From NCBI GenBank assembly GCA_040776945.1, contig JAXGZN010000002.1, positions 512,001 to 576,000 on the forward strand: 64,000 bases of DNA, read 5' to 3'. Source of the DNA: Methanomassiliicoccaceae archaeon. Its GTDB lineage: Archaea; Thermoplasmatota; Thermoplasmata; Methanomassiliicoccales; Methanomassiliicoccaceae. Below are positions 1,660-24,582 of the stretch, one piece after another (the first letter of the stretch is position 1; every line of letters begins with the position of its first letter). The position numbers and the translations under genes are program-made. Under the pieces are notes generated by a model. That model worked only from the letters and a program-made list of their open reading frames with translations. It ran no database searches and had not been told where the DNA came from.

Positions 1660-2087
1660 AGGTGTTCATGATCCCGCCCAACAGCCTTATCCTATACGAT
1701 CTGGTCGAACGCTTCGGCCACCAACCTCTCTCCCTGATGGGCGAGCTGCGCGACCATGTGGTGGAGCCGGAGGTGGAGTCCCCGCCCTTGAACCTTTCTC
1801 AGGACGACATCATGAGGGGGTTGAAGTACGCAGGGATAGAGGTCCCCTCCGGCATCCGGGGCCGCCTTGCCATCTGGGGCCCGATGGTCGATGAGGCGGA
1901 GGCGGCCATCATAATGCATGATATGCCCTACACCTTCGGCTGCGTGGGATGCCACCGTACCAACCTGATGCTCACCTACATGGTCAGGCGGAAGGGCATC
2001 CCGACGCTCGAGGTGCACTATCCTCATGATGACAATGAGGCCAAGGTCATGGTCTCCAAGATCAAGGCCTTCCTGGAGGGACTGTAA
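1656..2087 (+). CDS. mmp5: Methanogenesis marker protein 5
   Basis: Start at [13 protein letters not shown] (ATGA overlap); [16 protein letters not shown] and [10 protein letters not shown] motifs. Confidence 0.85.
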
Positions 2088-2088
2088 T

Positions 2089-3321
2089 ATGGCCATCAAG
2101 ATCGCACAGCTGTCCTGCGGGACGGAGTATTCTGGAATACAATCTGAGATCGACCACGCCGCCGACACCGTCGGAGGCAAGATGGTCTATCCGGACGTCG
2201 CGTTCGATGACATCAACCGCTCGGTCGAGGAGTTCGGCTTCGACCCCGCCTCTCCCCAGCTCCGCCTGATGATCGCTCGCGCCAAGGCGCTCGCCGACGG
2301 GCACTACGACGCGGACGCGGTGTTCATCGCCACCTGCTTCCGATGCGCGGAGGCGGCCCTGGTCAGGAACGAGGTTCGGAGGTACATACAGGACCACACC
2401 AAGCTGCCTGTGGTCACCTACTCGTTCACTGAGCGCCTGAAGGCCGCCCAATTGCTCACCCGCATGGAAGCCCTGGTCACCATAGTGGAGAAGAAGGAGC
2501 TTCTCGCCAGGGAACGCCAGGTAGGTCTTACCGCGGGCATCGATTCCGGGTCCTCGACCACCAAGGCCATGATCATGCGCGACAACGAGATCATCGGCAA
2601 GTATTGGACCCCCACCGGACCGGTTCTGGAGACCGGACTGGAGGTTTTCGAAAAGGCTCTGGAGGATGCGGGGGTGAAGCAGAGCGAACTGGAAGGCATC
2701 GGTGTCACCGGCTACGGGCGTTTCCTTATCGGCAAGAAGCTCGAGGCCAAGCTGGTGCAGGAGGAGCTGACGGTCAATAGCAAGGGTGCGGTCTGGCTCG
2801 CTGACCGGCAGAAGGGAGAGGCCACCATCATCGACATCGGAGGGATGGACAACAAGGCCATCACCGTGCGCGACGGCATCCCTGACAACTTCACCATGGG
2901 CGGCATCTGCGCCGGCGCGTCCGGCCGGTTCTTGGAAATGGTGACCAAGCGCCTTAGGGTCCCCATCGAGGACCTCGGCGCCCTCGCCGATAAGGGTGAC
3001 TGGCGAAAGGTGAACATGAACTCCTACTGCTCCGTCTTCGGCATCCAGGACCTGGTCACGTCGCTTGCAGCAGGCAACACCATCGAGGATGTCGCCGCGG
3101 CTGCCTGCCACTCCGTGGCCGAGCAGGTCTACATGCAGCAGCTGCAGGAGATCGACGTCCGCCAGCCGGTCATACAGGTGGGGGGAACGAGCCTGATCAG
3201 CGGACTGGTGCACGCGGTCGGAGAGATGGTCGGGTCTGCGCCCATCATACCAAAGAACTCCCAATTCATCGGAGCGGCCGGGGCGGCCCTGCTGGCCTCC
3301 GGCTTCCTCGAGGGGCTTTGA
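2089..3321 (+). CDS. mmp15: Methanogenesis marker protein 15 (BadF/BadG/BcrA/BcrD ATPase activase family)
   Basis: [52 protein letters not shown]. Confidence 0.9.
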
Positions 3322-3887
3322 TGACCCTGACCGACGAGAGATTCGCTTACGAGAACTTCGAGTCGATCTTCCGACAGACGCTCCAGGACCTGGGCATCTC
3401 CAGGAGCGTGCTCGGTTTCAGGATAATCGCCAATCCTGGAGCCCCCTATTTCCTGATCTCCATCAGATTGGGACGGGCACGATCGGCCATTAAGGTATCG
3501 GACATGTCCCAGCTCAATCCGCACGCCGGCGGTACGGCCTTGACCATCATTGATGAGGGTTGGGCGCCTGCCTTGCTGAACAAGCTATGGCAGCGGTACG
3601 GACGCGATCGGGTGGAACAGATGACGAGGTTCGAGATGCTGGTCCGGGGAGTGAGCGTGGATGAGCTGTCGAACTTGGAACTTGACCCCGGAGAGGAGCT
3701 GAAGGCCAAGGTCCTGGACGCCGTCTGGAGGCTCTTCCCGGAGGGCTTCACCGTGCGCTACGAGATAGTGGACGAAAGGGCCATGACCATAATCGGCACG
3801 GAGCATGACATGAGGCCGGAATGGATCGATGTCGCGAGGATGGTACATAAGGAGATGAGCGCCAGGGAGGCAGATCCAGATGTATGA
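3318..3887 (+). CDS. mmp17: Methanogenesis marker protein 17
   Basis: Operon position; [12 protein letters not shown] and FPEGFTVR motifs. Confidence 0.75.
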
Positions 3888-4812
3888 GGTGCTGATGTAT
3901 GACGGCGGCGTCTACCGCGTGAACGAGCTCTATGAGCTGGTCGAGGACGTCGGAGGGTTCGTCATCCAGAAGACCCAGATCCAGGTCCAGATACTGGTGA
4001 CGATGGCCATACCGGAGGAGGAGCGCCCGGTCATAGAGGCTAAGACCCGGGAGCTTGGCGGCAAGATCGTGCACGTACCGCTCGCCGGGACCGAGGTCGC
4101 GGTCGTCGCACCTACGCTGGGGCGTCATCATATGCCCCATCCAACCTGCGACATCGCCGAACAGCTGCGCAGGCTCGGAGCGATCACTGTTGTCATGGGC
4201 CTCGCTCGAGGGAAAGGACGAAGGACCTCCCAGATCAGCGCCGATGAGAAGGCGATCATCGAGGAGTACGATGCGGCCGTGTTCGTTCTGGGCAACTTCA
4301 AGGATTGCATCCTGGAGCACAAGGTCAAGCTGTTCGAGGAGATCGAGATCCCGGTGGTCGTGGTGTGCGGACCGCAGATGGACGACTTGCCGCACTGCGA
4401 GGCCATCGTATGCGGTGTCGGCCGAAAGGTCGAGAGGATGCGCAGAGAGGAGGAGATCGCCCGGCTGAACGAAGTATCGGTCGCCATCGAGAAGGTGGTC
4501 AAGGAAAGGCGCCGCTTCCTGGAGGAGGACCCCTTGTTCGTCCATCCCGCAGAGGTCAAGGACCGCATCGCCGAGCTCGAGCCGGTCGAGCGCAGCCTGC
4601 GGCCTGCGCCTGTGGTCCTGCACTTGGACGGCCTCAGGGTGAAGATCCCCTATAAAGAGTGGAAGGACCAGATCGCCGCGGTCGAGGTGTACGGGCACCG
4701 GCTGGGGGACATCGCAACGATATCCGACTCCCGTCTCGGGGGCAGCACCCTCATAAAGATCAAGACCCGCTCCGAGGTAGAGGACCACGACCGCCGCGCG
4801 AAAAAGGGATGA
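3880..4812 (+). CDS. mmp7: Methanogenesis marker protein 7
   Basis: YDGGVYR..EL.ELVEDVGG, PTLGRHHMPHPTCDIAE, GLARGKGR. Confidence 0.85.
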   Translation: MYEVLMYDGGVYRVNELYELVEDVGGFVIQKTQIQVQILVTMAIPEEERPVIEAKTRELGGKIVHVPLAGTEVAVVAPTLGRHHMPHPTCDIAEQLRRLGAITVVMGLARGKGRRTSQISADEKAIIEEYDAAVFVLGNFKDCILEHKVKLFEEIEIPVVVVCGPQMDDLPHCEAIVCGVGRKVERMRREEEIARLNEVSVAIEKVVKERRRFLEEDPLFVHPAEVKDRIAELEPVERSLRPAPVVLHLDGLRVKIPYKEWKDQIAAVEVYGHRLGDIATISDSRLGGSTLIKIKTRSEVEDHDRRAKKG

Positions 4813-4816
4813 GCGT

Positions 4817-5251
4817 ACGAGCGCGCCCGGAGCGTACATACTTCTCTTCCGCCTTTCCGCACGAACGGTGGCCATCGGCCGGCTTGGGACCTATGGTCTC
4901 GAGGAAGGTCGCTACGCCTACGTCGGCTCGGCCATGAACGGTCTTCGAGCAAGGACCGCACGCCACTTAGAGGCCCGCGGAAAGAAGAGGTGGCACATCG
5001 ACCACCTTATGGGCGAGGCGGAGGAGAAGGAGGCGCTCCTAGTGCCGTCGGACGTGGACATCGAGTGTGCGCTGGCCGATCGCCTGAGGTCGATGCCGGG
5101 AACCATCGAGCCGATACCTGGCTTCGGAAGCTCGGACTGCCGCTGCAGTTCACACCTGTTCCTCATAGACGATGCCGCTTACCAGGAGCTCACGCGGCGC
5201 AGCAGGCCTTCGCCGTTCCCAAATTCGAGGTTGCTCCCACCAGATTGGTAG
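4817..5251 (+). CDS. DUF123 / Uri-superfamily GIY-YIG endonuclease (start uncertain)
   Basis: GAYILL...YAYVGSA...RWHIDHL...FGSSDCRCSSHL; the conserved N-terminus lies upstream of the ORF-track GTG at 4868. Confidence 0.75.
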   Translation, partial: TSAPGAYILLFRLSARTVAIGRLGTYGLEEGRYAYVGSAMNGLRARTARHLEARGKKRWHIDHLMGEAEEKEALLVPSDVDIECALADRLRSMPGTIEPIPGFGSSDCRCSSHLFLIDDAAYQELTRRSRPSPFPNSRLLPPDW

Positions 5252-7330: not shown

Positions 7331-7979
7331 AAGTTCTAATTTTCCAAATGGTTGCCTAGACCGTTCACCAGCGGGCCTAGAGATCCCTCAATCATCCCGC
7401 AACGCATGGTAAGCAGGCCTCCCTCAGCGTTCGTTCAAGGCTCCTTCCATGCGTCGGACCGAAGCGAGAGCAAACTTTCCGTTCATCGGCCTTATCTCCC
7501 AGGTAGGCGCGTTGGGACCTCGAGTTGAATGGTCTCAACACACGGGCAGAGGTGAAAGGATCTCAACTCAAGAAGTCCTTTCCCATACACGACGCCAGAA
7601 AGGAATGTGCAAAGGCGTTACGGTCCGGACAGGGACCTTATCGTTCAGACCTCAACGGCAAGGTCCGTCTCGTCCAGGACAGTGCCGCCAAGCGGACAAT
7701 ATGGTCTCCATATGCGGCCTTTACGAGGGACGGCATCGATACTGTGCGGAGACTCGCAGAACATGACAGGATGCGAACGTTTGGGGGGCCTTCTAAGGCT
7801 GGATCTCGCCTGCGGTCACAATTGCCTCCCTGCTCCAAACGCTCTCTTTTCTGGAAGATCCGATATGGCTCTTGGACCTCCGGTCACGGGAGCCGGCCCA
7901 TGTGTCTTTCCCAACGCCGCTCTCCATTTAATGATAAGGTCCCCCGCCCATCAATGGTAAGGGACCCGTTAGGGAACGA

Positions 7980-10511
7980 TCACTTCCCGTATTTCCTTTT
8001 CACCTCTGGAGTGTACCTCCTCAGCAGCGCTGCGTTGCTGACCACCGATACCGAGCTCATGGCCATCGCCGCGGCGGCCACGATGGGATTGAGCAGCAGT
8101 CCAAAGAACGGATACAGCACCCCTGCGGCAATGGGGATGCCTGCGGAATTGTAACCGAGCGCCCAGAACAGGTTCTGGCGTATCTTGGTCAACGTCCTCT
8201 TGGAGAGCTGGATGGCGGCCACCGCATCGAGCAGGTCGCTTCGGATCAGAACTATGTCCCCGGTCTCCATGGCCACATCGGTACCGCTGCCTATGGCGAT
8301 GCCTACGTCCGCCTGCGCCAGAGCCGGCGCGTCGTTCACTCCGTCCCCTATCATGGCCACCCGTCTGCCCTCGGCCTGCAGCCTGGCAACTTCCTGTGCC
8401 TTGTTCTCCGGCAGGACTTCGGCGATGTAGCGGTCGATGCCCACCTGGGAGGCGATGACCTTTGCTGTCCGGGGGTTGTCCCCGGTCAGCATGAGCACAT
8501 CGATCCCCATCTCCTTTAGCTCGGAGACCGCCTCCTTGGACGTCTCCTTCACCACATCGGCAACGCCTATTATGCCTATGAGAGCGGGGCCCGAGGACAC
8601 CAGCATTGCGGTGCGGCCCTCCTCCTCCATGCGCTGCAGGTCGGTCTCCGCTACGGACATGGATATCCCGTTGGAATCCATCATCCTCCTGTTTCCTATG
8701 AGAACTGTCCGCCCGTCGACAACTGCCCTCACTCCCTGCCCGGGAACGGCCTCGAAGCTATCAGCATCAGGGACCGATACGCCGTCTCTCATGGCCCGGC
8801 GGACGATGGCCTCGGCCAGAGGATGCTCGGAGCTCTTCTCCACCGCGGCGGCGGTTCTCAGGACATCGGCCTCGGTGCCATCCAGGACCAAGATGTTGGT
8901 GACCTCCGGTTCTCCTTTGGTGATAGTGCCGGTCTTGTCCATGATCACCAACTGGACCTTGCCTGTGTTCTCCAGGGCCTCAGCGCTCTTGAACAGTATG
9001 CCGTTCTCGGCCCCCTTCCCTGAGCCGACCATGATTGCCGTCGGCGTGGCCAGGCCAAGCGCACAGGGACACGATATCACCAGGACAGAGATGAAAATGA
9101 TCAGTGAGAACACGAACCCCTCGTCCCCTCCCACGAGAACCCCGTAAGCGTAGAGATACCAGATGAAGAACGCCACTGTGGCGATGACTATGACCGCCGG
9201 CACGAACCATGCCGACACACTGTCGGCATACCTCTGTATGGGGGCCTTCGATGATTGGGCATCCTCCACCAGTCTGATTATCTGCGCCAAAGCGGTGTCC
9301 TTTCCCACCTTGGTGGCTCGGACCTTGAGGACCCCGTTCTTGTTGATGGAACCGCCGACCACAGGTGATCCCGAGGTCTTGTCGATCGGTATGGACTCAC
9401 CGGTGATCATGCTCTCGTCGACCGCGGAACTGCCATCCTCCACCGTTCCATCGGTAGCGATCTTCTCCCCAGGGCGAACGATGAACAGATCATCGACCTT
9501 CAGGAGCTCGACCGGGACCTCTATCTCGGCCCCGTCCCTGACGACCCTGGCGGTCCGGGCCTGTAGTCCCACTAGCTTGCGTATGGCCTGAGACGTCCGC
9601 CCCTTGGCCTTGGCCTCAAGGTATTTGCCGAACAATATCAGGGAGATGATCATGGCCGAGCTGTCGAAGTAGGTGTGATGATGGAAAGGTATCAGCGATG
9701 GGAAGAACACCACGGCCACTGAATAGAAGTACGCGGCCGATGAACCCATTGCGATCAAGGTATCCATGTTCGCGCGGCGGTTCTTCAGAGCGTAATAGGT
9801 GCCCAGGTAGAACTGGAAGCCTGCTATGAACTGAACCGGGGTGGCCATTATGAACAGCAGGAGGTTCTCGAACCCGGATATGCCCAGCGCCGCCCCCCAG
9901 CCGAAGAAGTCGAACCCGATCATGAGGACCATTATCGGAACGCTCAAGGCAAGGGAGAACACAAGAAGGGTCAACTGTCTCTTCTGTTCCTTCTCTCTTT
10001 CCGCCATCTCTGTGTCCAGAGTCTCGGACTCCAGCACCTCGTAGCCCGCGTTCACGATGGCGGCCTTAATCGCTTCGAGGGTCACCATCTCCGGGTTGAA
10101 TCGAACCATGGCCTTCTCCGTGGCCAGATTGACACTGGCGGAGAGGACGCCTTCCATTGCGGTCAATACATCCTCTATTATGCCGGCGCAGGAGGCGCAG
10201 ACCATGCCTTTGATCCCCAACGTGACCTGGTCCACCGCTACGTCGTAGCCTGCCTTCTGGACGGCGGCGGCGATCTTCGATGGATCGACCAGCGAAGGAT
10301 CGTATACCACCCGGGCCTTCTCAGTTGCCAGGTTGACCGGGGCCTCTATCACCCCTGGCAATTTCCCGATGGCATCCTCGACGGTACCAGCGCAGGATGC
10401 GCAGGTCATCCCGGTAACTCCCAATGTTATCGTCTTCGTCGTTCCCGGACCAGGCTTCGGGGGCGGCAAAGGGCAGACCTCATCATTGCACGGCTCGTTC
10501 ACGCCAAGCAA
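7980..10511 (-). CDS. copA: Copper-translocating P1B-type ATPase
   Basis: Two HMA domains (GMTCASC, GMVCASC), TGES, CPC, DKTGT, SEHPL, GDGVND, YN and MAMSS motifs. Confidence 0.95.
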   Translation of the reverse strand: MLGVNEPCNDEVCPLPPPKPGPGTTKTITLGVTGMTCASCAGTVEDAIGKLPGVIEAPVNLATEKARVVYDPSLVDPSKIAAAVQKAGYDVAVDQVTLGIKGMVCASCAGIIEDVLTAMEGVLSASVNLATEKAMVRFNPEMVTLEAIKAAIVNAGYEVLESETLDTEMAEREKEQKRQLTLLVFSLALSVPIMVLMIGFDFFGWGAALGISGFENLLLFIMATPVQFIAGFQFYLGTYYALKNRRANMDTLIAMGSSAAYFYSVAVVFFPSLIPFHHHTYFDSSAMIISLILFGKYLEAKAKGRTSQAIRKLVGLQARTARVVRDGAEIEVPVELLKVDDLFIVRPGEKIATDGTVEDGSSAVDESMITGESIPIDKTSGSPVVGGSINKNGVLKVRATKVGKDTALAQIIRLVEDAQSSKAPIQRYADSVSAWFVPAVIVIATVAFFIWYLYAYGVLVGGDEGFVFSLIIFISVLVISCPCALGLATPTAIMVGSGKGAENGILFKSAEALENTGKVQLVIMDKTGTITKGEPEVTNILVLDGTEADVLRTAAAVEKSSEHPLAEAIVRRAMRDGVSVPDADSFEAVPGQGVRAVVDGRTVLIGNRRMMDSNGISMSVAETDLQRMEEEGRTAMLVSSGPALIGIIGVADVVKETSKEAVSELKEMGIDVLMLTGDNPRTAKVIASQVGIDRYIAEVLPENKAQEVARLQAEGRRVAMIGDGVNDAPALAQADVGIAIGSGTDVAMETGDIVLIRSDLLDAVAAIQLSKRTLTKIRQNLFWALGYNSAGIPIAAGVLYPFFGLLLNPIVAAAAMAMSSVSVVSNAALLRRYTPEVKRKYGK

Positions 10512-10643: not shown

Positions 10644-11234
10644 ATGATGGGATTGGATGAGAACGATTTGAACATCCTCAACGTTCTCCAGACCAATGGT
10701 CGACTATCCTATCGGCAGATATCCGAGAGGATCAGGATATCTGTTCCCACGGTGAGCAGCAAGATCGGCAACCTAGAGCGGATAGGCATCATCAGCGGTT
10801 ATCACGCCCGACTCGACCCTGAGAGGATGGGCGAGTTCAGCGCCATGGTGACGGTGAAGGCCCGCCCCTCGGAGCTGCCTGTGGTCATACGCCATTTTAA
10901 AAGTGATGACCAGGTGCGGCAGGTGTTCCTGCTGACCGGCGGTCGCCTTCTCCTCATATGCACATACGTGGATGTGCGAGCGCTGAACGAGTTTGCCTCC
11001 AAGCTAGCTTTGATCCCTGAGATATTGGACTATGACGTTGCTAACGTGATAGGCGTGGCCAAGGAGCTGCACAGAGCGGTCGTGGCCTCTGGGGCATCGC
11101 CGACCGCCAAGTGTGCCAATTGCGGGATCGAGATACGAGGGGGTGCCCTCCGCCTTAAGAAGGGTTCCTTGGTCCATCATCTATGTTCCGAAGGCTGCCT
11201 CGCCGCTTTCCGCGGCCGTCTGGGTAAATTATGA
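10644..11234 (+). CDS. Lrp/AsnC-type HTH regulator with C-terminal TRASH domain (CopR/CopT-like)
   Basis: LDENDLNILNVLQTNGRLSYRQI wHTH; CANCG...HHLCSEGC TRASH motif; divergent from copA. Confidence 0.85.
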   Translation: MMGLDENDLNILNVLQTNGRLSYRQISERIRISVPTVSSKIGNLERIGIISGYHARLDPERMGEFSAMVTVKARPSELPVVIRHFKSDDQVRQVFLLTGGRLLLICTYVDVRALNEFASKLALIPEILDYDVANVIGVAKELHRAVVASGASPTAKCANCGIEIRGGALRLKKGSLVHHLCSEGCLAAFRGRLGKL

Positions 11235-12055: not shown

Positions 12056-12141
12056 GCATGCTCATTATCAATAGAAATAATAGCAGGCCAGATGGCTATC
12101 TGCAAGGCGTCATTACCAGTTTTGATATTTAAAGGTATTCG

Positions 12142-12170
12142 GAGCATGCTCAACTACCTCTTTTATATTT
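12142..12170 (+). promoter_or_regulatory. Palindrome GAGCATGCTC followed by the TATA box of the repeat-peptide gene
   Basis: GAGCATGCTC at 12142-12151; TTTTATATTT at 12161-12170; SD-like GGTGAGG at 12202-12208. Confidence 0.6.
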
Positions 12171-12212
12171 CAAAAACCAAAACGGTCTAAAAAGGAAGAC
12201 CGGTGAGGAAAG

Positions 12213-12434
12213 ATGAAAGCAAGAACAATGACCCTGATTGGATTCGTAGCGCTCTTATTGGCCGCGTTCGGCACGGTCGCAGTGGTAGCTGACGTGGCCT
12301 CGGTGAACCTCATCATTCCAGGAATAGACCCGCACATCATCCCGGGCATCGATCCTCATATCATCCCCGGTATCGATCCGCACATCATTCCAGGAATAGA
12401 CCCGCACATCATCCCGGGCATCGATCCTCATTAA
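12213..12434 (+). CDS. Secreted precursor peptide: signal peptide plus 5x IIPGIDPH
   Basis: MKAR n-region, hydrophobic h-region, VVA|D cleavage-like site; own TATA box, SD and terminator; repeats differ only synonymously. Confidence 0.85.
   Translation: MKARTMTLIGFVALLLAAFGTVAVVADVASVNLIIPGIDPHIIPGIDPHIIPGIDPHIIPGIDPHIIPGIDPH
12312..12431 (+). repeat. Five tandem 24-bp coding repeats, pattern A-B-C-A-B
   Basis: A=ATCATTCCAGGAATAGACCCGCAC, B=ATCATCCCGGGCATCGATCCTCAT, C=ATCATCCCCGGTATCGATCCGCAC. Confidence 0.95.
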
Positions 12435-12438
12435 GCTC

Positions 12439-12480
12439 ATTGCCTCTTGCCCCCCTCGAGGCAATATATTTTTTATTTTT
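12439..12480 (+). terminator. Hairpin plus T-tract between the convergent peptide and STAND genes
   Basis: ATTGCCTC (12439-12446) pairs with GAGGCAAT (12458-12465), followed by long T runs. Confidence 0.65.
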
Positions 12481-12481
12481 C

Positions 12482-15172
12482 TCAGGCCAGGCTAGCAAGG
12501 GCCTGCTCGACCTCTTTTTTTAGATTCTCCGCAGACCCATGCGTAGTGAGCTGCAACGCCTCCTGAAGCAGACCGCTTGCGCCCTCTTTATCGCCGTTCT
12601 TTATGAACTGCTGGGCTATCTCATACAGCCAGCGCCCCAGAAGTAGGGGCGCGTCTTGCCTTCTGATGGTTTCCAAGGCATCGGTGAACTCGGCCTTGGC
12701 CCACTCCCACTCCATTCTCTTGTTGAAAATATAGCCGCGCATCAGGTGCAGGTCCGCCAACAGAACATTGTTCCCGAGCTTCTCGAATATCTTGCTCGCT
12801 TGGTTGATATGCTCTTGAGCCTGTTCCAGCATGTCGATCTCCACATACACGACCACAGCGTTCCTGAGCGCATATCCTTGCAGCTCCAGGTTCCCGGAGG
12901 TGCGGCCCATTTCAGCCGCCCGCTCGTGATATTTGACCGCCTCAGAATAGTTGTGCACCTCTGCCAGGCTTGTACCAAGACCGATGCATATCTTGGCGAT
13001 ATTGTCTACATCCCCTGTCCTTTCTATGACCTCCAGCGCCTCCTTTTTATATTTGATGGCCTGGTGATGGTCGATCAATGACGAGTACACGCGCCCGATG
13101 CCATACAAGGCCAATCCCAGACCGATATCGTCCATAGCGCTTTGTGCAAGTTCCATAGAACGGCGGAAGGCAACCATTGCATCTTGGTGGCGGCCTCGGT
13201 TCTGCAGAACCCCTCCCAGGTCGTAATAGGTCTCCACCAGTGCGTGAGGGTCTTTCACGTCCTCCGCCAACCCAAGGCTCCGCTTGAGATATTCCTCGGC
13301 CTTATCGAACACCGAGCGCCTAAGGTAGATAGCGCCAAGCCTGCGGTTGACCTCAGCTAGCAGTCTGCGGTCCGTTTGCGGATCGCTCAGGCCTATGATC
13401 TCCTCGAACCTGGTTATCGCCTGGTCCCACTCTCCGCGAACCTCTAGGACATCGCCCTCGAGGAGAAGAAGCTCCATCTTCTCACTTCGATCGATGTTAT
13501 CGCACTGTGCCCTAAGAGATGTGAGGAGAGGTGCGAACGGAAGGCTGTAGCCCTTGGATATGATGTCCCGGCCGCTGCCTGCCGCGATCCGCACCGCGGT
13601 GCTGTACTCCTTGGCCATCAAGCAATGGTACAACGCCTCCACGTGCGCTGGAGCGGAATTATCCAAGAGGTAATACCTGGACGCTGCCTTGTGATAGGTA
13701 ACGCGCTGCCGCGGAGAAAGCCGGGAGTAGAAGAAGTCGCGCAGCAGGTCATGCATCCCGATCATGCGACCTAAGGACTCATGCATCAGCGATTTGGAAA
13801 GGAGTGAATCTATGGTATCATAGTCGACGAGGTAGTCCTTGTACTCCATCTCCTTCTGGAAAAGACCAAGGTCTTTGGCGATCTCTTCCTCCATGGTGAA
13901 GAAAGCGTCAACGAGCACCGGATAGCGGAACACCGAGGCGATGTCCATTATCCTGCGCTCGGTTATGTCGAGCTTGGAATATACCTCCTGCTCAATGAAC
14001 ATGCGGACGTTCTTTCCCAGAGCGCTCTGCGGACCGTCCACCAGCTCCAAAAAGAGAGGATGCCCTCGGGTGGCCCGGTATATGTCCATCAGCTCGTGCT
14101 CGGGCAGTTCGCGATTCCGCATGAGGCGTAGAGAGCTCTCAACATCCAGGCCCTCCAGCATCATCTCCTTGACCTGCCCCTTGAAGACGGCCGCACGCGA
14201 GTAGAACGAGGGGATCTCACGACTTGTGCAGATCAAAGAGACGTCAGAGATGGACTCAAGAACGATCACCATTGCGGACAGGAACTCTTGCACCGTCCTG
14301 TCCCCTTTCTGAACATCGTCGATGATGAACACCGTTGGCAGGTCCTGGAGGTCCATCTCCAAGATCCCGCATACCTCTCCTACCGCCGGGCTGTCCGTCC
14401 TAGAAAGATATCGCTCAAGCCCCTTCTTGCCGAGCTGCGAAAGGAATTCCGCGATCGGCGTGAGAAGGATCTTTAGGTTCACCCATTCATGGACCCGATA
14501 CCAGTATACGTGCCTCTGTTCCCTTATGTCCTGGACGAACTTCGCGAGGAGAGTGGTCTTCCCGATCCCCGGGATGCCGCAGACGGCCATTATGCTCGCC
14601 GTATCAGAGTTGAGAAAGTCGATAAGTTCGGCCATCTCTTTCTGCCTTCCATAGAAGCTGCGGACCGTTGGCTTGCGATCGGTGTAATCCACGAACCTCC
14701 GCTCCTGCTTAACTTTCCCCTCGTGGAAAGAAGAGCAGTCAAAGCTCCCCCTCGACACGCTGATCGCGAGGTCGAGGAAGGCATATCTCTTCGGCAGATA
14801 CAGGGACAGCTTGCCCAGCTCGTCCTCATGCACCTTGCCATCAAAATCGATAATGTTGATCTTGGTGCGTTCGATCTCGAGCTTGAGATTGAGGGCGTTC
14901 TGATAGCCGCTGGGAGTTAGGAAGTAGACCTTTTTTACACTGGCGAACCCCTTGACATGTCTGGTGTGGACCTCGACCACGCCTTCCCCTTCCATGCTAT
15001 TTACGATCTTGGAGACATTGTTCCGTCCGACATCGACAGCCTCAGCTATCCCTTCCTGGGTAACGGTCGCCGGAGCGTCAGGATCTTGCTGATACCTCTG
15101 GTATGCCAGGAGGTGCAGGATGACCCTCTCACGCACGGTAAGCAGGGACTTCCTGGAGGAGCGGTTCACCAA
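12482..15172 (-). CDS. wHTH - STAND-class P-loop NTPase - TPR regulator
   Basis: N-terminal wHTH (TQEGIAEAVDVGRNNVSKIV..KKVYFLT); FYGRQKE, Walker A GIPGIGKT, Walker B VFIIDD, TSRE, GHPLFL; C-terminal TPR-like repeats. Confidence 0.85.
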   Translation of the reverse strand: MVNRSSRKSLLTVRERVILHLLAYQRYQQDPDAPATVTQEGIAEAVDVGRNNVSKIVNSMEGEGVVEVHTRHVKGFASVKKVYFLTPSGYQNALNLKLEIERTKINIIDFDGKVHEDELGKLSLYLPKRYAFLDLAISVSRGSFDCSSFHEGKVKQERRFVDYTDRKPTVRSFYGRQKEMAELIDFLNSDTASIMAVCGIPGIGKTTLLAKFVQDIREQRHVYWYRVHEWVNLKILLTPIAEFLSQLGKKGLERYLSRTDSPAVGEVCGILEMDLQDLPTVFIIDDVQKGDRTVQEFLSAMVIVLESISDVSLICTSREIPSFYSRAAVFKGQVKEMMLEGLDVESSLRLMRNRELPEHELMDIYRATRGHPLFLELVDGPQSALGKNVRMFIEQEVYSKLDITERRIMDIASVFRYPVLVDAFFTMEEEIAKDLGLFQKEMEYKDYLVDYDTIDSLLSKSLMHESLGRMIGMHDLLRDFFYSRLSPRQRVTYHKAASRYYLLDNSAPAHVEALYHCLMAKEYSTAVRIAAGSGRDIISKGYSLPFAPLLTSLRAQCDNIDRSEKMELLLLEGDVLEVRGEWDQAITRFEEIIGLSDPQTDRRLLAEVNRRLGAIYLRRSVFDKAEEYLKRSLGLAEDVKDPHALVETYYDLGGVLQNRGRHQDAMVAFRRSMELAQSAMDDIGLGLALYGIGRVYSSLIDHHQAIKYKKEALEVIERTGDVDNIAKICIGLGTSLAEVHNYSEAVKYHERAAEMGRTSGNLELQGYALRNAVVVYVEIDMLEQAQEHINQASKIFEKLGNNVLLADLHLMRGYIFNKRMEWEWAKAEFTDALETIRRQDAPLLLGRWLYEIAQQFIKNGDKEGASGLLQEALQLTTHGSAENLKKEVEQALASLA

Positions 15173-15225: not shown

Positions 15226-15251
15226 GAGCATGCTCAAAATCGTATTATATA
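15226..15251 (+). promoter_or_regulatory. Second GAGCATGCTC palindrome plus TATA box in the STAND/DUF835 divergent region
   Basis: GAGCATGCTC at 15226-15235; TTATATA at 15245-15251. Confidence 0.6.
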
Positions 15252-15294: not shown

Positions 15295-15843
15295 ATGAAC
15301 AACGGTTCCAAGATATCCCTGCTCCTTGAGGACTATCCTCGGAATGGCTATCACATATACTCCAAGATCGTTGGTCGCTCCACCAGCGGCCTCTGCATTT
15401 CCCGCCTGCATCCCGAATACGTGGGCCAGAAGTACGGCCTGGAGATGTCCAAAAGATACTGGCTAAGCGGCCAGAGCGGCGTTGACGTGATCTCCCCTAA
15501 GTCCCTTAACCACCTCCTCAAAGTGATCCGCCAGGAGCTTAGGGGCAGATCGGGAGGAACAATATTCCTCGACGGACTGGAATATCTTCTTCTATTCCAC
15601 GATATGAACAGGATACTTGGCATCCTAGAGCAGATCGATTCCCTCCTCAGGGAGGCCAAGGTGGAGCTCATCGTGGCTATGGACCCCCTGACCTTCGAGC
15701 AGAAGGACCTCGATACGCTTTATGCGGCCTTCCCTCACTCTTCCAGTGAAGAGATGATGGCAAGGCTGTCTGCCCAGGGCCCCTCGGCCATGGCCTCGAC
15801 CAGAGCGGTGTCCGCACCTCCCAGGGCCAGTCTGCGGGTCTGA
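15295..15843 (+). CDS. DUF835 domain protein (inactive KaiC/RecA-like)
   Basis: GLCISRLHPE, YWLS, ISPKSL, IFLDGLEYL, MDPLTF; GGTGA SD before ATG 15295. Confidence 0.8.
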   Translation: MNNGSKISLLLEDYPRNGYHIYSKIVGRSTSGLCISRLHPEYVGQKYGLEMSKRYWLSGQSGVDVISPKSLNHLLKVIRQELRGRSGGTIFLDGLEYLLLFHDMNRILGILEQIDSLLREAKVELIVAMDPLTFEQKDLDTLYAAFPHSSSEEMMARLSAQGPSAMASTRAVSAPPRASLRV

Positions 15844-15955: not shown

Positions 15956-16510
15956 TCAGATGCATTCACTAGGGGTCACGATCTCGGCGAAGCGCCTGAG
16001 GCGGGCAACATATCGCGGGTCCATGGACAATGGGTCCAGAGGGACGAGCATGAGGGCTCTCGAGGCCATGATCCCATCGTTCACCTGTTCAAGGAACATC
16101 TGCACTTTGGTGGGGTCGTTGAACAAGGTCAAATACTCCACGCCCTCAAGGAGCACGACCGCGTTCCTCTTGCCCATTAAGAACGTCGAGACACGCTGCG
16201 ATATCCTGTGAAGCTGGTTCGGCGGAATGTTGGCAGCACCCGGCCGCTCGCTCAGCCAAGCGCATTCCAGCGATACTCCGGGCATCTGCTCTTGAAGCAG
16301 ATCTGGGTGCAGGCGGGTGACACACAGTGCCTTTGAGCCGGAAAAGACGAAATCCTGCAATATCCTCAGCGTCCTCTCCATCTTCTTCTCGCAAACGAAA
16401 TATATCCTTCCGAAATCAAAAAGGAAATCCTCTCCGGCGCTCAAGCTCACAAGGTCGGCACTCAATGTGTTGCCTCTCTGAGGAATCGGCACGGACGAAT
16501 TCACTTCCAC
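15956..16510 (-). CDS. DUF835 domain protein
   Basis: ALCVTRLHPD, WLSE, IPPNQL, VLLEGVEYL, LDPLSM. Confidence 0.8.
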   Translation of the reverse strand: MEVNSSVPIPQRGNTLSADLVSLSAGEDFLFDFGRIYFVCEKKMERTLRILQDFVFSGSKALCVTRLHPDLLQEQMPGVSLECAWLSERPGAANIPPNQLHRISQRVSTFLMGKRNAVVLLEGVEYLTLFNDPTKVQMFLEQVNDGIMASRALMLVPLDPLSMDPRYVARLRRFAEIVTPSECI

Positions 16511-21078: not shown

Positions 21079-21552
21079 CTAGGCGTAACTGGACACGACC
21101 TCGTCGGATATGTGCTCGAGCATCTCAAGCTTCTGAGGATAATGATTGCGGGGGTCCAGACTTATTATCAAGTTGCTGCCATCCTCATTGACCTTGCCGG
21201 TGGCCCTTGCCAGAACGTTGAGCACAGGCCGGAACCCGTTCCACATCTCCAGCACATCCAGGCCGTTCAATACAATGATCCCATCTTTGTTATCCTTCAG
21301 GAAGGTATTGATGTACTTCTCGAACGCCTGAAGGTTCATCGGCGGTATGCATTCTGGATTGGGCCTCGTGCTGAGCCACATGGTCTCCAGCATATGCTCA
21401 TCAAAGTCCAACTGGCTTCTCAGCAGGCGCGGCGGATTCTTTGAGATATAGAGAGCCTTTCGGCCTTTGTCCAACTCCTTCCTCAGGACCTGATGGGTCC
21501 TCAACGGCACGCGCTCCTCGAACAGGTAGAACTTCCCCTTCGATAGTTTCAT
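21079..21552 (-). CDS. DUF835 domain protein
   Basis: ALYISKNPP, WLS, IPPMNL, IVLNGLDVL, SLDP; GGAGGG SD before ATG 21552. Confidence 0.75.
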   Translation of the reverse strand: MKLSKGKFYLFEERVPLRTHQVLRKELDKGRKALYISKNPPRLLRSQLDFDEHMLETMWLSTRPNPECIPPMNLQAFEKYINTFLKDNKDGIIVLNGLDVLEMWNGFRPVLNVLARATGKVNEDGSNLIISLDPRNHYPQKLEMLEHISDEVVSSYA

Positions 21553-21818
21553 CTTATGCCCTCCTTTTCCGAACCAATTCCATGAGAGCTTGTGAATATT
21601 AGTCTGTTGCCCGTTGGTGATTATCAAAAAGTGATAATAACGCCGCAAAAAAAGCGTACTTTTGGTAATTAATGATGTACACATTCTTACTGGATAGTTA
21701 GAAATTCATGACGGAGGTTATATTACTTGATGCTATTGATAATGATAATATACTGGGATCATAGGAAATACTGGATGGACCAGTGAAGAAAGAGCAGAAA
21801 AAAAATGGACGGAAAATG

Positions 21819-23454: not shown

Positions 23455-24582
23455 ATGGACGCGCAGGAGTTATCGGCACTTTTCCCGCCAATCGACCGAG
23501 CGTGGCTGGAGCGTGCGCGGAAGCGGTTCGCCAGTCCTTTCATGGGCACTAAGTTCGACCGCATCGCCGTCGATCCGATGATGCTCTCACACGCTGCGGT
23601 GGTCTGCGGCTTTACCATAGGCGACTTCTATAAGCAGCCTGAATTGGGAGCGTCGTGCGTCGCCTATGCTTCCCAGCTCTATGATCTGCTGCCTGTTACC
23701 CATTGGTACTTCTCACTTCCTTGGATCAGCGAGCTCGGTGGAGAGCTTCGCTATACGGACCTGTTGCCGCCGACCGTTTCCAACATCGTTGTGAAGACCC
23801 CCGAGGACGTCGATCTCGTGGAGGTACCCGGGATCGAGGAGATCCGAAAGGGCTGGACCTATAGTCAGATGACCAGGTCCAACGATTTCATCAAGGAGAA
23901 CATCCCGGAGATGTTCGTGCCCATAGCGTCGGTCTCCGACCTGCCCGGCTCTGCCGGTCAGCTATGCGGGGTGGAAACGTTCATAATGTGGACCCTGACC
24001 GAGCCGGACCTCGCCCATAAGCTCACCGCGAAGTATACCGAGACCGCAATAGAAGGAACAGGGGCGATAGCTGACCGCTATGGGATGGCAATGATATCCA
24101 CAGGATCGGTCCTTGGGAACAATGACATATTCAGCGATCAGGCGGTGCTCGATTATTCTGCCAAATACCTCCGAAAGCTTGTGGAGGGAGCTTTCCGCAA
24201 GGGTGCTGGCCCCCAGCTGTTCTACCATATGTGCGGAAACCATGAGACCGATTACAAAGTGTTCAAGGACGTGGTCATTTGGTCCCCCTTCACCATCATC
24301 CAGCTTGGGTACAAAGGGCGGGACGTGTTCCCTGCGGACGAGATGGCCAAAGAGTTCGGACAGCTCGCCACCGTCATGGGCTCGGTGGACACAAGGCTAA
24401 TGATAGATCCAAATCCTCGGGCGGTTTACGAACAGGCCAGCAGGCAGATAGTGGCCGGTCGGGACAGCCCCAACGGCTTCATACTCGGGACGGCCTGCGA
24501 GACCCCGCCTTACACCATACCTGGCAACATCTATGCCTTGGTGCAGGCGACAAAGGACCATGGAACATACGGTCATTGGTGA
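23455..24582 (+). CDS. MtaA/MtbA-like methylcobamide:CoM methyltransferase (UroD family)
   Basis: Zn ligands YHMCG and GFILGTACETP; GSVD; size fits the family. Confidence 0.8.
   Translation: MDAQELSALFPPIDRAWLERARKRFASPFMGTKFDRIAVDPMMLSHAAVVCGFTIGDFYKQPELGASCVAYASQLYDLLPVTHWYFSLPWISELGGELRYTDLLPPTVSNIVVKTPEDVDLVEVPGIEEIRKGWTYSQMTRSNDFIKENIPEMFVPIASVSDLPGSAGQLCGVETFIMWTLTEPDLAHKLTAKYTETAIEGTGAIADRYGMAMISTGSVLGNNDIFSDQAVLDYSAKYLRKLVEGAFRKGAGPQLFYHMCGNHETDYKVFKDVVIWSPFTIIQLGYKGRDVFPADEMAKEFGQLATVMGSVDTRLMIDPNPRAVYEQASRQIVAGRDSPNGFILGTACETPPYTIPGNIYALVQATKDHGTYGHW

Follow-up and report, generated by a model that had tools for sequence, protein, structure and literature searches.

Within a 64,000-nucleotide stretch of the genome of a Methanomassiliicoccaceae archaeon (hereafter the window), a gene of only 73 amino acids (12213-12434, + strand) ends in five tandem copies of one octapeptide, IIPGIDPH, which are identical in protein and divergent in DNA. 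The locus raises the question of whether this small open reading frame is a genuine gene and, if so, what the repeated peptide is for. The comparisons described below establish that it is a real gene whose peptide is under extreme purifying selection. For its function we favor, tentatively and with a little less than even confidence, a multi-copy precursor of a short peptide ligand that is sensed by the adjacent STAND-TPR regulator, in analogy to the RRNPP systems of bacteria. The features on which the analysis draws are collected in Table 1.

Table 1. Positions of the peptide gene, the regulator gene and associated elements in the window
Feature	Position	Strand	Basis or remark
Conserved AT-rich box ATATTTAAA upstream of the operator-like element; may serve the divergent HAD gene as TATA box	12125..12133	.	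Nearly invariant columns in 22 upstream regions
Operator-like element AGCATGCTCAA with core palindrome AGCATGCT	12143..12153	+	Identical in 22/22 orthologous upstream regions, flanks diverged
Probable TATA box TTTTATATTT, 7 nt downstream of AGCATGCTCAA	12161..12170	+	Conserved in alignment; archaeal TATA identity suggested by sequence and position
Ribosome-binding site GGTGAGG, 4 nt 5' of ATG	12202..12208	+	Read from sequence; GGTG-type sites kept in orthologues
N-terminal basic residues and 22-residue hydrophobic stretch ending ...VVA; probable Sec-type signal peptide or anchor	12213..12290	+	By inspection
Variable linker DVASVNL	12291..12311	+	Sequence and length differ among orthologues
Five tandem 24-bp units, each IIPGIDPH, order A-B-C-A-B	12312..12431	+	Translation and repeat comparison
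Unit bounds	12312-12335, 12336-12359, 12360-12383, 12384-12407, 12408-12431	+	Each translates to IIPGIDPH
Stop codon TAA, immediately 3' of the last His	12432..12434	+	Translation; PH-stop also ends most orthologues
Terminator-like structure (hairpin plus T-run) in the gap that separates the convergent peptide and regulator genes	12447..12474	+	Stem 12447-12464, then TATATTTTTT
Gene of an 896-aa regulator with a predicted winged helix at its N-terminus, a STAND P-loop NTPase (NB-ARC/AAA_16) and about 10 TPR repeats; proposed peptide receptor	12482..15172	-	
Second AGCATGCTCAA copy followed by a TATA-like box, in the upstream region common to the regulator gene and DUF835 gene a	15227..15237	+	
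DUF835 gene a, inactive KaiC-like output domain	15295..15843	+	Pfam PF05763; likely true start 15295 from promoter and RBS context
DUF835 gene b	15956..16510	-	Pfam PF05763; syntenic in 18/20 loci

A repeated peptide under purifying selection

The encoded protein consists of MKAR, 22 hydrophobic residues ending in VVA, the linker DVASVNL and the five repeat units. Unit 1 is identical in DNA to unit 4 and unit 2 to unit 5, and the three unit types differ pairwise at seven (A/B), five (A/C) and four (B/C) positions, all of them third-codon and synonymous. This layout, and the counts of third-position differences between units that encode the same peptide, had been described in the initial annotation and were reproduced exactly. 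Tandem Repeats Finder places this array at 12311-12427 and gives it a period of 24, 4.9 copies and 77% matches. At least nine substitutions are required among types A, B and C, and because the synonymous share of single-base changes to such units is only 23.6%, the probability that all nine would be synonymous is about 2e-6. An open antisense reading frame of 69 amino acids (12255-12464) was considered as the coding frame and rejected; since its repeat units vary in amino acid sequence, the constrained frame is the one on the + strand.

Comparison with relatives extends this result. In eight congeneric species the array comprises 51 units in 29 DNA versions, all of which encode IIPGIDPH; variation is confined to the eight third positions of the unit, where all synonymous codons for I, P, G, D and H are found. 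The N-terminal 33 amino acids of the same genes have a mean identity of only 51%. The earlier proposals that the reading frame is real and that selection on the exact peptide is very strong are thereby borne out, and the free drift of the repeat peptide that would have spoken against them is absent within the eight congeners, although the repeated sequences do differ between lineages. A recent expansion of the A-B block, also proposed from the window alone, agrees with the block duplications (ab)3, (ab)6 and ababa seen in relatives, and copy number across genomes ranges from 1 to 12 or more units. The contigs assembled from public sequencing runs break inside the repeat, so copy-number variation is not readable from them.

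Orthologues are present in the genus and across the order. The element conserved in the family is a heptapeptide core, [IL]P-x-x-x-P-H, present in 1 to 12 or more copies per protein; examples are IPGIDPH, IPGLEPH, IPLIDPH, IPFLDPH, IPGNSPH, IPGNDPH, IPVSDPH and LPGMTPH. Cores are identical inside one protein and different between lineages, and they are separated by spacers of 1 to about 20 amino acids. The octapeptide IIPGIDPH had been put forward as the mature unit on the ground that the stop codon follows the last His directly. The C-terminal boundary holds, as most family proteins end in the same way, but the residue that precedes each core, Ile in this genus, varies between lineages and sometimes within one protein (P0008, P0009). 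This residue is probably best seen as part of the spacer, though it too is constrained in this genus.

The family was searched for with a three-unit DNA pattern and with a protein profile. The pattern, applied to one genome for each of 185,579 species, returned 16 stretches, 14 of them from Methanomassiliicoccus, Methanomassiliicoccaceae or Methanomassiliicoccales. The other two, both actinobacterial (L044, L052), were rejected as out-of-frame chance readings of GC-rich DNA that do not belong to the family, and viral contigs gave 0 matches to the pattern. The profile matches 37 of the 149 Methanomassiliicoccales genomes that are at least 90% complete, distributed over families as f1 10/19, f2 1/1, f3 16/27, f4 3/4, f5 1/1, f6 5/5 and f7 0/91. 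Among the profile-search hits, 24 of the 28 inspected are family members, with 117 further hits lying outside the inspection; four long hits of 162 to 1669 amino acids (P0014, P0016, P0017, P0037) were set aside as unrelated low-complexity repeats. By both pattern and profile searches the family appears to occur only in Methanomassiliicoccales. Pfam, NCBIfam and Rfam contain no match for the peptide or its locus, the best scores of the peptide against a protein atlas (up to 0.81) lie within the chance range and the peptide motif is absent from the literature in a full-text search of a limited collection. Because the gene is small and repetitive, and because in several metagenome-assembled genomes the repeat region is represented by a run of N, it is easily missed during assembly or annotation.

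The peptide gene is represented among contigs assembled from RNA libraries in three studies. The k-mer depths of the short RNA contigs confined to it are 1523, 238 and 99-185, those of contigs from flanking genes are 2-13 and those in a DNA run are 6.9-11.4 for the peptide gene and 6-7.6 for the flanks. These figures give only a hint of a highly abundant transcript, because expression is poorly measured by contig depth and RNA libraries may contain DNA. The N-terminal architecture is the same in orthologues, with small residues following the hydrophobic stretch, which suggests that it may serve as an export signal and be cleaved.

The adjacent regulator and the shared promoter element

The peptide gene is located between a divergently oriented HAD hydrolase gene and the convergent STAND-TPR gene, with the two DUF835 genes beyond the latter, and it adjoins the HTH-STAND-TPR regulator gene in all syntenic loci of the order. 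The surrounding 10 kb or so encode a FAD oxidase, CopA, an Lrp-type regulator, HAD, STAND, DUF835, a PLP enzyme and ribonucleotide reductase; the CopA P-type ATPase and the Lrp-type regulator, which has a Cys-rich C-terminus, are 1-4 kb from the peptide gene. Among the output domains of archaeal response regulators, DUF835 appears as ‘iKaiC’, a KaiC-like domain that is inactive (table in PMC5847659). Synteny alone proves little here, because the whole 20-kb neighborhood is kept across the order, housekeeping genes included.

Patterns of gene loss are more informative about which genes belong together. Among 41 genomes, 25 carry both the peptide and the regulator gene and 12 carry neither. The four others comprise G003 (a run of N in the array), G008 (mini-cistrons, described below), G011 (a single-unit gene next to a regulator read in two pieces) and G027 (peptide gene at a contig end). 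In seven of the 12 genomes that lack both genes the flanks are kept: one side has CopA, the Lrp-type regulator and, except in G023, HAD, and the opposite side has the PLP enzyme. The deletion boundaries differ among these seven. HAD directly abuts the PLP enzyme (PALP) in G017 and in three genomes of genus g3 (G012, G016, G020). G014 has kept one DUF835 gene, and G023 has lost HAD as well. G026 lacks precisely the peptide and STAND genes and keeps the epimerase and both DUF835 genes. The peptide and regulator genes are thus lost together while the flanking genes stay; as the two are adjacent, a single deletion could remove both.

By its domain matches the regulator qualifies as a STAND NTPase with a TPR sensor. 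Pfam detects the NTPase as AAA_16 (9.8e-11), ATPase_2 (5.2e-10) and NB-ARC (2.4e-8), and the Walker A motif GIPGIGKT is invariant among 16 orthologues. TPR_12 (E 2.2e-25) and other TPR families span residues 557-890, and TPR_MalT scores 45.8 bits, its cut-off being 45. Neither Pfam nor NCBIfam gave a Rap, NprR or PlcR match for the regulator. At the N-terminus, HTH_Crp_2 (22.7 bits) and TrmB (20.4 bits) fall below their respective Pfam cut-offs; in the AlphaFold model, residues 39-85 adopt a helix-helix-hairpin arrangement with high pLDDT, and through this predicted winged helix the regulator is a putative DNA-binding protein. The model has an overall pLDDT of 80.5, with about 20 paired helices in the TPR region at a pLDDT of about 90. 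The top structural match is the archaeal STAND-TPR protein 6mfv_A (E 3.6e-17), followed by the TPR superhelices of LGN/Pins, which hold extended peptides; a phage Rap-pheromone complex ranks 39 and a MalT complex ranks 50. The modelled structure therefore fits a peptide sensor and is not specific to one. Complex prediction with TPR residues 440-895 (16-row alignment) and repeat residues 27-73 scored 0.00 in both runs and carries no weight either way.

Evidence that connects the two proteins comes from their joint divergence. For 276 pairs formed by 24 genomes, the sequence identity of the TPR domain (residues 480-895) was divided by that of the HTH and NTPase portion. The ratio, uncorrected for phylogeny, is 0.91-1.07 (mean 1.02) in the 37 pairs with the same peptide core, which include distant pairs from different families, and 0.65-1.06 (mean 0.82) in the 239 pairs with different cores, ranges that overstate the support because pairs of related genomes are non-independent. 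The difference is visible at matched divergence. Where N-domain identity is 0.78-0.80, congeners with the same core have a TPR identity of 0.81-0.84, that of G003 to its congeners is 0.67-0.70 and that of G038 to G030 and G025, whose cores differ by a single Ile/Leu exchange, is 0.66-0.67. A counter-example is G002 (IPSIDPH versus IPGIDPH), with a ratio of 1.02-1.06 like that of same-core pairs, and several very distant different-core pairs reach 0.92-1.03. The trend was replicated in genus g35, with ratios of 1.00-1.05 for three same-core pairs and 0.86-0.96 for 12 different-core pairs. Taken with these exceptions, the covariation gives moderate support to the reading that the TPR domain may recognize the peptide, and it lends indirect support to the sequence-specific recognition that had been suggested from the conservation of the repeats.

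The promoter of the peptide gene also shares an element with the upstream region of the regulator gene and DUF835 gene a. The genome contains four exact copies of AGCATGCTCAA, two of which are promoter-like (12143 and 15227) and two of which lie in coding DNA with no TATA box. Both promoter-like sites are present in every module-bearing locus whose DNA covers both positions, and three loci that are cut off by a contig end or belong to a gapped assembly show a single site. In four genomes that lack the module (G012, G014, G017, G037) the element was not found. Several genomes have a third such promoter, which precedes an RNA or leader beside an adenylate-kinase-like gene; its version in the genome of the window has one mismatch to AGCATGCTCAA, and Rfam gives no match for the RNA behind it. 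A strict promoter pattern is found in 57 of 261 genomes, which is a lower bound because the pattern misses true sites, including those of the window’s own genome. One locus speaks against a simple assignment of the element. G026 has no regulator and retains only the AGCATGCTCAA site on the side of DUF835 gene a, which weakens the assignment of AGCATGCTCAA to the STAND regulator, because another factor may bind it.

Putative precursor forms and possible explanations of the peptide

The presumed precursor takes several forms. Most lineages have an apparent Sec-type N-terminus with basic residues, 20 or more hydrophobic residues and then small residues. In genus g35 the same promoter precedes a gene whose leader of 18-29 residues is basic and hydrophilic, lacks a hydrophobic stretch and leads into 3 to 12 or more units of LPGVGP-X. 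Three species have His at position X, and Tyr, Trp and Val occur there in one species each, two frameshifted assemblies (G223 and G226) having been omitted. The gene of G011 contains a single unit. In the congeners G003 and G008, tandem units of about 115 bp stand behind the promoter, each consisting of a GGTGGA ribosome-binding site, an eight-codon open reading frame (MFGSIGPH) and a hairpin, with four units in G008 and at least one in G003 ahead of the run of N. The small reading frame is identical at 27 of 27 bases between these two genomes; its flanks differ, and a change in the hairpin is compensatory. These mini-cistrons, found in only 2 of 261 genomes, are predicted to be a leaderless form of the peptide. 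A scan of metagenomes for the mini-ORF gave a single match, which has no promoter and was judged to be a chance occurrence. The leader variants argue for a single short unit as the active species and for a target reachable from the cytoplasm.

Under the peptide-ligand reading, the precursor would be exported and cut into peptides of 7-8 residues ending in Pro-His, which would be re-imported, perhaps via binding proteins of the Opp/Dpp type. Three genes for such proteins (PF00496) are present in the genome and are not specific to this system. Inside the cell, the TPR sensor of the adjacent HTH-STAND-TPR regulator would bind the peptides, and the regulator would act at AGCATGCTCAA, just upstream of both TATA boxes. 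At the peptide gene this site would close a feedback loop, and at the divergent DUF835/regulator pair it would provide the output. The tandem copies would raise the molar yield of peptide per transcript.

A more extended form of this proposal, which we consider possible and rather doubtful, is a complete archaeal system for cell-to-cell communication by peptides. A highly expressed propeptide would be exported, processed, re-imported and read by the cytoplasmic STAND-TPR factor, which would auto-induce the peptide gene via a dedicated operator. The exchanges of the last residue in genus g35 (H/Y/W/V) would then represent pherotype-like diversification within a genus, the Sec-type, basic-leader and leaderless precursors would be three solutions to export and the whole would be a convergent counterpart of RRNPP signaling in methanogens of digesters, sludges and sediments.

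The peptide might instead act as a ligand or antagonist of the regulator inside the cell that produces it, with no signaling between cells. The precursor or fragments of it would then bind the TPR domain in the cytoplasm, perhaps serving as a timer or reporting the state of secretion. The signal-peptide-less forms, that is the hydrophilic leader of genus g35 and the eight-codon cistrons of G003 and G008, fit such an intracellular ligand as well as a secreted signal, and the covariation of core and TPR domain is explained equally well by either. We nevertheless consider this explanation unlikely, given that most family members have an N-terminus shaped like an export signal and that an exported peptide would need to re-enter the cell in order to act inside it. 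A missing leader, for its part, does not exclude secretion, because leaderless secreted signaling peptides are known in Firmicutes (PMC10518010).

A hydrophobic N-terminus, repeats rich in Pro and Gly and the hint of high RNA abundance would also suit an unprocessed protein, secreted or anchored in the membrane, with a structural, adhesive or surface role, which the regulator controls and does not sense. This is rather improbable. Eight residues that are invariant over 29 DNA versions would be unusual for a disordered surface repeat, the cores are kept while the spacers vary widely in length, the single-unit, signal-less and eight-codon forms exist and the divergence of the TPR domain tracks the peptide core.

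Multi-core precursors are typical of several classes of ribosomally made, post-translationally modified peptides. The repeat architecture, together with the fairly conserved basic leader of genus g35, could accordingly be that of a modified antimicrobial or cofactor precursor whose enzymes are encoded elsewhere. No candidate modifying enzyme is present within about 10 kb, however, and in most members the N-terminus is variable and the core conserved, the reverse of the usual relation between leader and core; we regard this origin as improbable. Metal binding (Cu, Ni or Zn), which the initial annotation had offered as an alternative function, could be suggested for a His-repeat peptide of the nearby copper-efflux cluster by the one His and one Asp per unit and by the proximity of CopA and the Lrp-type regulator; it is very improbable. 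Species of genus g35 have Tyr, Trp or Val in place of the final His, other lineages have Ser, Thr, Glu, Gly or Pro where this genus has Asp, and Ile, Pro and Gly are as invariant as His within the genus. The gene is lost with the regulator and not with the copper ATPase, and peptide-less genomes keep CopA, the Lrp-type regulator and mostly HAD.

Relation to known peptide systems

Among known systems, the proposed precursor of a ligand for the STAND-TPR regulator most resembles those of the RRNPP type that Bacillota and their phages use (Rap/Phr, NprR/NprX, PlcR/PapR and AimR/AimP). In both cases a small gene stands beside the gene of a TPR receptor (here a proposed one), lineage-specific peptide variants track receptor divergence and a palindromic site is located in the promoter of the peptide gene itself. 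The export-type N-terminus and short active C-terminal peptide of RRNPP propeptides may have a counterpart in the archaeal product, whose N-terminus looks like an export signal in most lineages. RRNPP propeptides with several tandem pheromone copies also exist (PMC11343458), and a further study is said to report them (PMC5199041). The archaeal system, known here from sequence alone, differs in that its receptor is an 896-aa STAND NTPase with a predicted winged helix rather than an RRNPP protein of 300-450 amino acids, in that up to 12 or more identical copies occur and in that the peptide and receptor genes are convergent. We regard the system as an analogue and not as a member of RRNPP, because the regulator is a STAND NTPase of this size with no RRNPP family match. 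As far as we are aware, quorum sensing in which cytoplasmic TPR receptors read peptides has been described in Bacillota and their phages. Among the matches listed by a full-text search of a limited literature collection, none concerns archaeal peptide quorum sensing of the RRNPP type, and no description of this peptide family or of such an archaeal peptide-receptor pair was found in that collection.

Three other systems share single traits with the locus. SIP is a peptide of eight residues that is translated with no leader. Like the SIP/RopB class of Firmicutes, G003 and G008 have eight-codon mini-ORFs with their own ribosome-binding sites beside a TPR regulator, whereas the predicted archaeal mini-ORFs form a tandem array of four with a hairpin after each, and the receptor would be a STAND protein. 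This leaderless class of communication peptides is described in PMC10518010. The STAND-TPR proteins MalT, AfsR and archaeal 6mfv have the same combination of a P-loop NB-ARC/AAA_16 domain and a TPR sensor as the regulator. The known ligands of this class are small molecules or proteins, and we know of no genetically encoded, co-evolving short peptide from an adjacent gene that serves as ligand of a STAND protein. Precursors of the yeast alpha-factor type combine a signal peptide with tandem identical peptides that are separated by dibasic spacers of the Kex2 type, and their copy number sets the dosage. The archaeal gene has a comparable arrangement of a probable signal peptide and tandem identical short peptides, but its spacer can be a single non-basic residue.

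If the peptide is indeed a ligand of the STAND-TPR regulator, archaea would gain a genetically encoded pair of peptide signal and receptor that is testable with a synthetic peptide of 7-8 residues, and a short peptide from an adjacent gene would join the ligands of STAND regulators. The family would then also be a natural case in which dosage is achieved in two ways, by in-frame repeats and by tandem mini-cistrons. For the organisms themselves, the pair would offer a handle on the population behavior of methyl-reducing methanogens in anaerobic digesters.

Mini-cistron arrays and assembly gaps

In two congeneric genomes, G003 and G008, the signal-peptide precursor is replaced by a mini-cistron array under the same promoter. 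Each tandem unit of ~115 bp consists of a ribosome-binding site, an 8-codon open reading frame (MFGSIGPH) and a hairpin, which carries compensatory changes between G003 and G008. Several metagenome-assembled genomes show a run of N in place of the repeat region of the peptide gene. For this reason assemblies often contain only part of the gene or lack it, and a 'not found' result in an N-gapped assembly does not amount to absence of the gene.

Genes around the peptide module

Families f6 and f4 of the order have two genes inserted between the peptide gene and the divergent HAD gene, one resembling an NAD-dependent epimerase and the other small and Lrp-like (both labels assigned by eye). Genome G026 retains the inserted genes despite having lost the peptide gene and the regulator gene. 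The copper-type P-type ATPase of the window and its adjoining Lrp/AsnC regulator are kept in genomes that do not carry the peptide module, i.e. the peptide gene and its STAND-TPR regulator. This Lrp/AsnC protein, with its Cys-rich C-terminus, gives a sub-threshold zf-FCS match (20.4 bits) and has a TRASH-like appearance. The peptide-gene neighbourhood also includes a third DUF835 gene (window 21079-21684), which is syntenic in family f1.

Elsewhere in the window, the BadF/BcrAD-type ATPase and DUF2113 genes are taken here to be methanogenesis markers 15 and 17, and the URO-D-family gene is presumably an MtaA/MtbA-like methyltransferase. Together these genes are consistent with a methyl-reducing methanogen.

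Coordinates of features in the window and the compared loci
Feature	Position	Strand	Remarks
BadF/BcrAD-type ATPase and DUF2113	window 2026-3887		
Copper-type P-type ATPase	window 7980-10511	-	two HMA domains
Lrp/AsnC regulator	window 10644-11234	+	Cys-rich C-terminus; adjoins copper-type ATPase
Terminator-like hairpin and T-run	window 12183-12202	-	within 5' untranslated region of peptide gene
URO-D-family gene	window 23455-24582		
HAD-to-peptide-gene insertions	L037:8696-9718; L060:10546-11568; L070:8817-9797		families f6 and f4
Mini-cistron arrays	L061:8905-9300; L059:7810-8090		G008; G003
N-runs in repeat region	L059 ~7870-7965; L040 ~9790-10010; L063 ~4680-4830; L065 ~5070-5170		
Third promoter	G000:C1:659204 (outside window)	-	element and TATA box; window's own genome
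Third promoter, other loci	L077-L081, L083, L087, L089, L090		element and TATA box

A third promoter with the shared element

The palindromic, operator-like element that precedes the TATA boxes of the peptide gene and of DUF835 gene a also occurs with a TATA box at a third promoter, where it reads AGCATGCTCAA, or AGCATGCTCTA instead in the window's genome. Downstream of this promoter, beside an adenylate-kinase/Fap7-like gene, is a conserved non-coding stretch (GGAGAAGGYCCRCGGGGA-like), for which Rfam yields no match. This stretch is a putative RNA or 5' leader, possibly belonging to the regulon of the peptide module.
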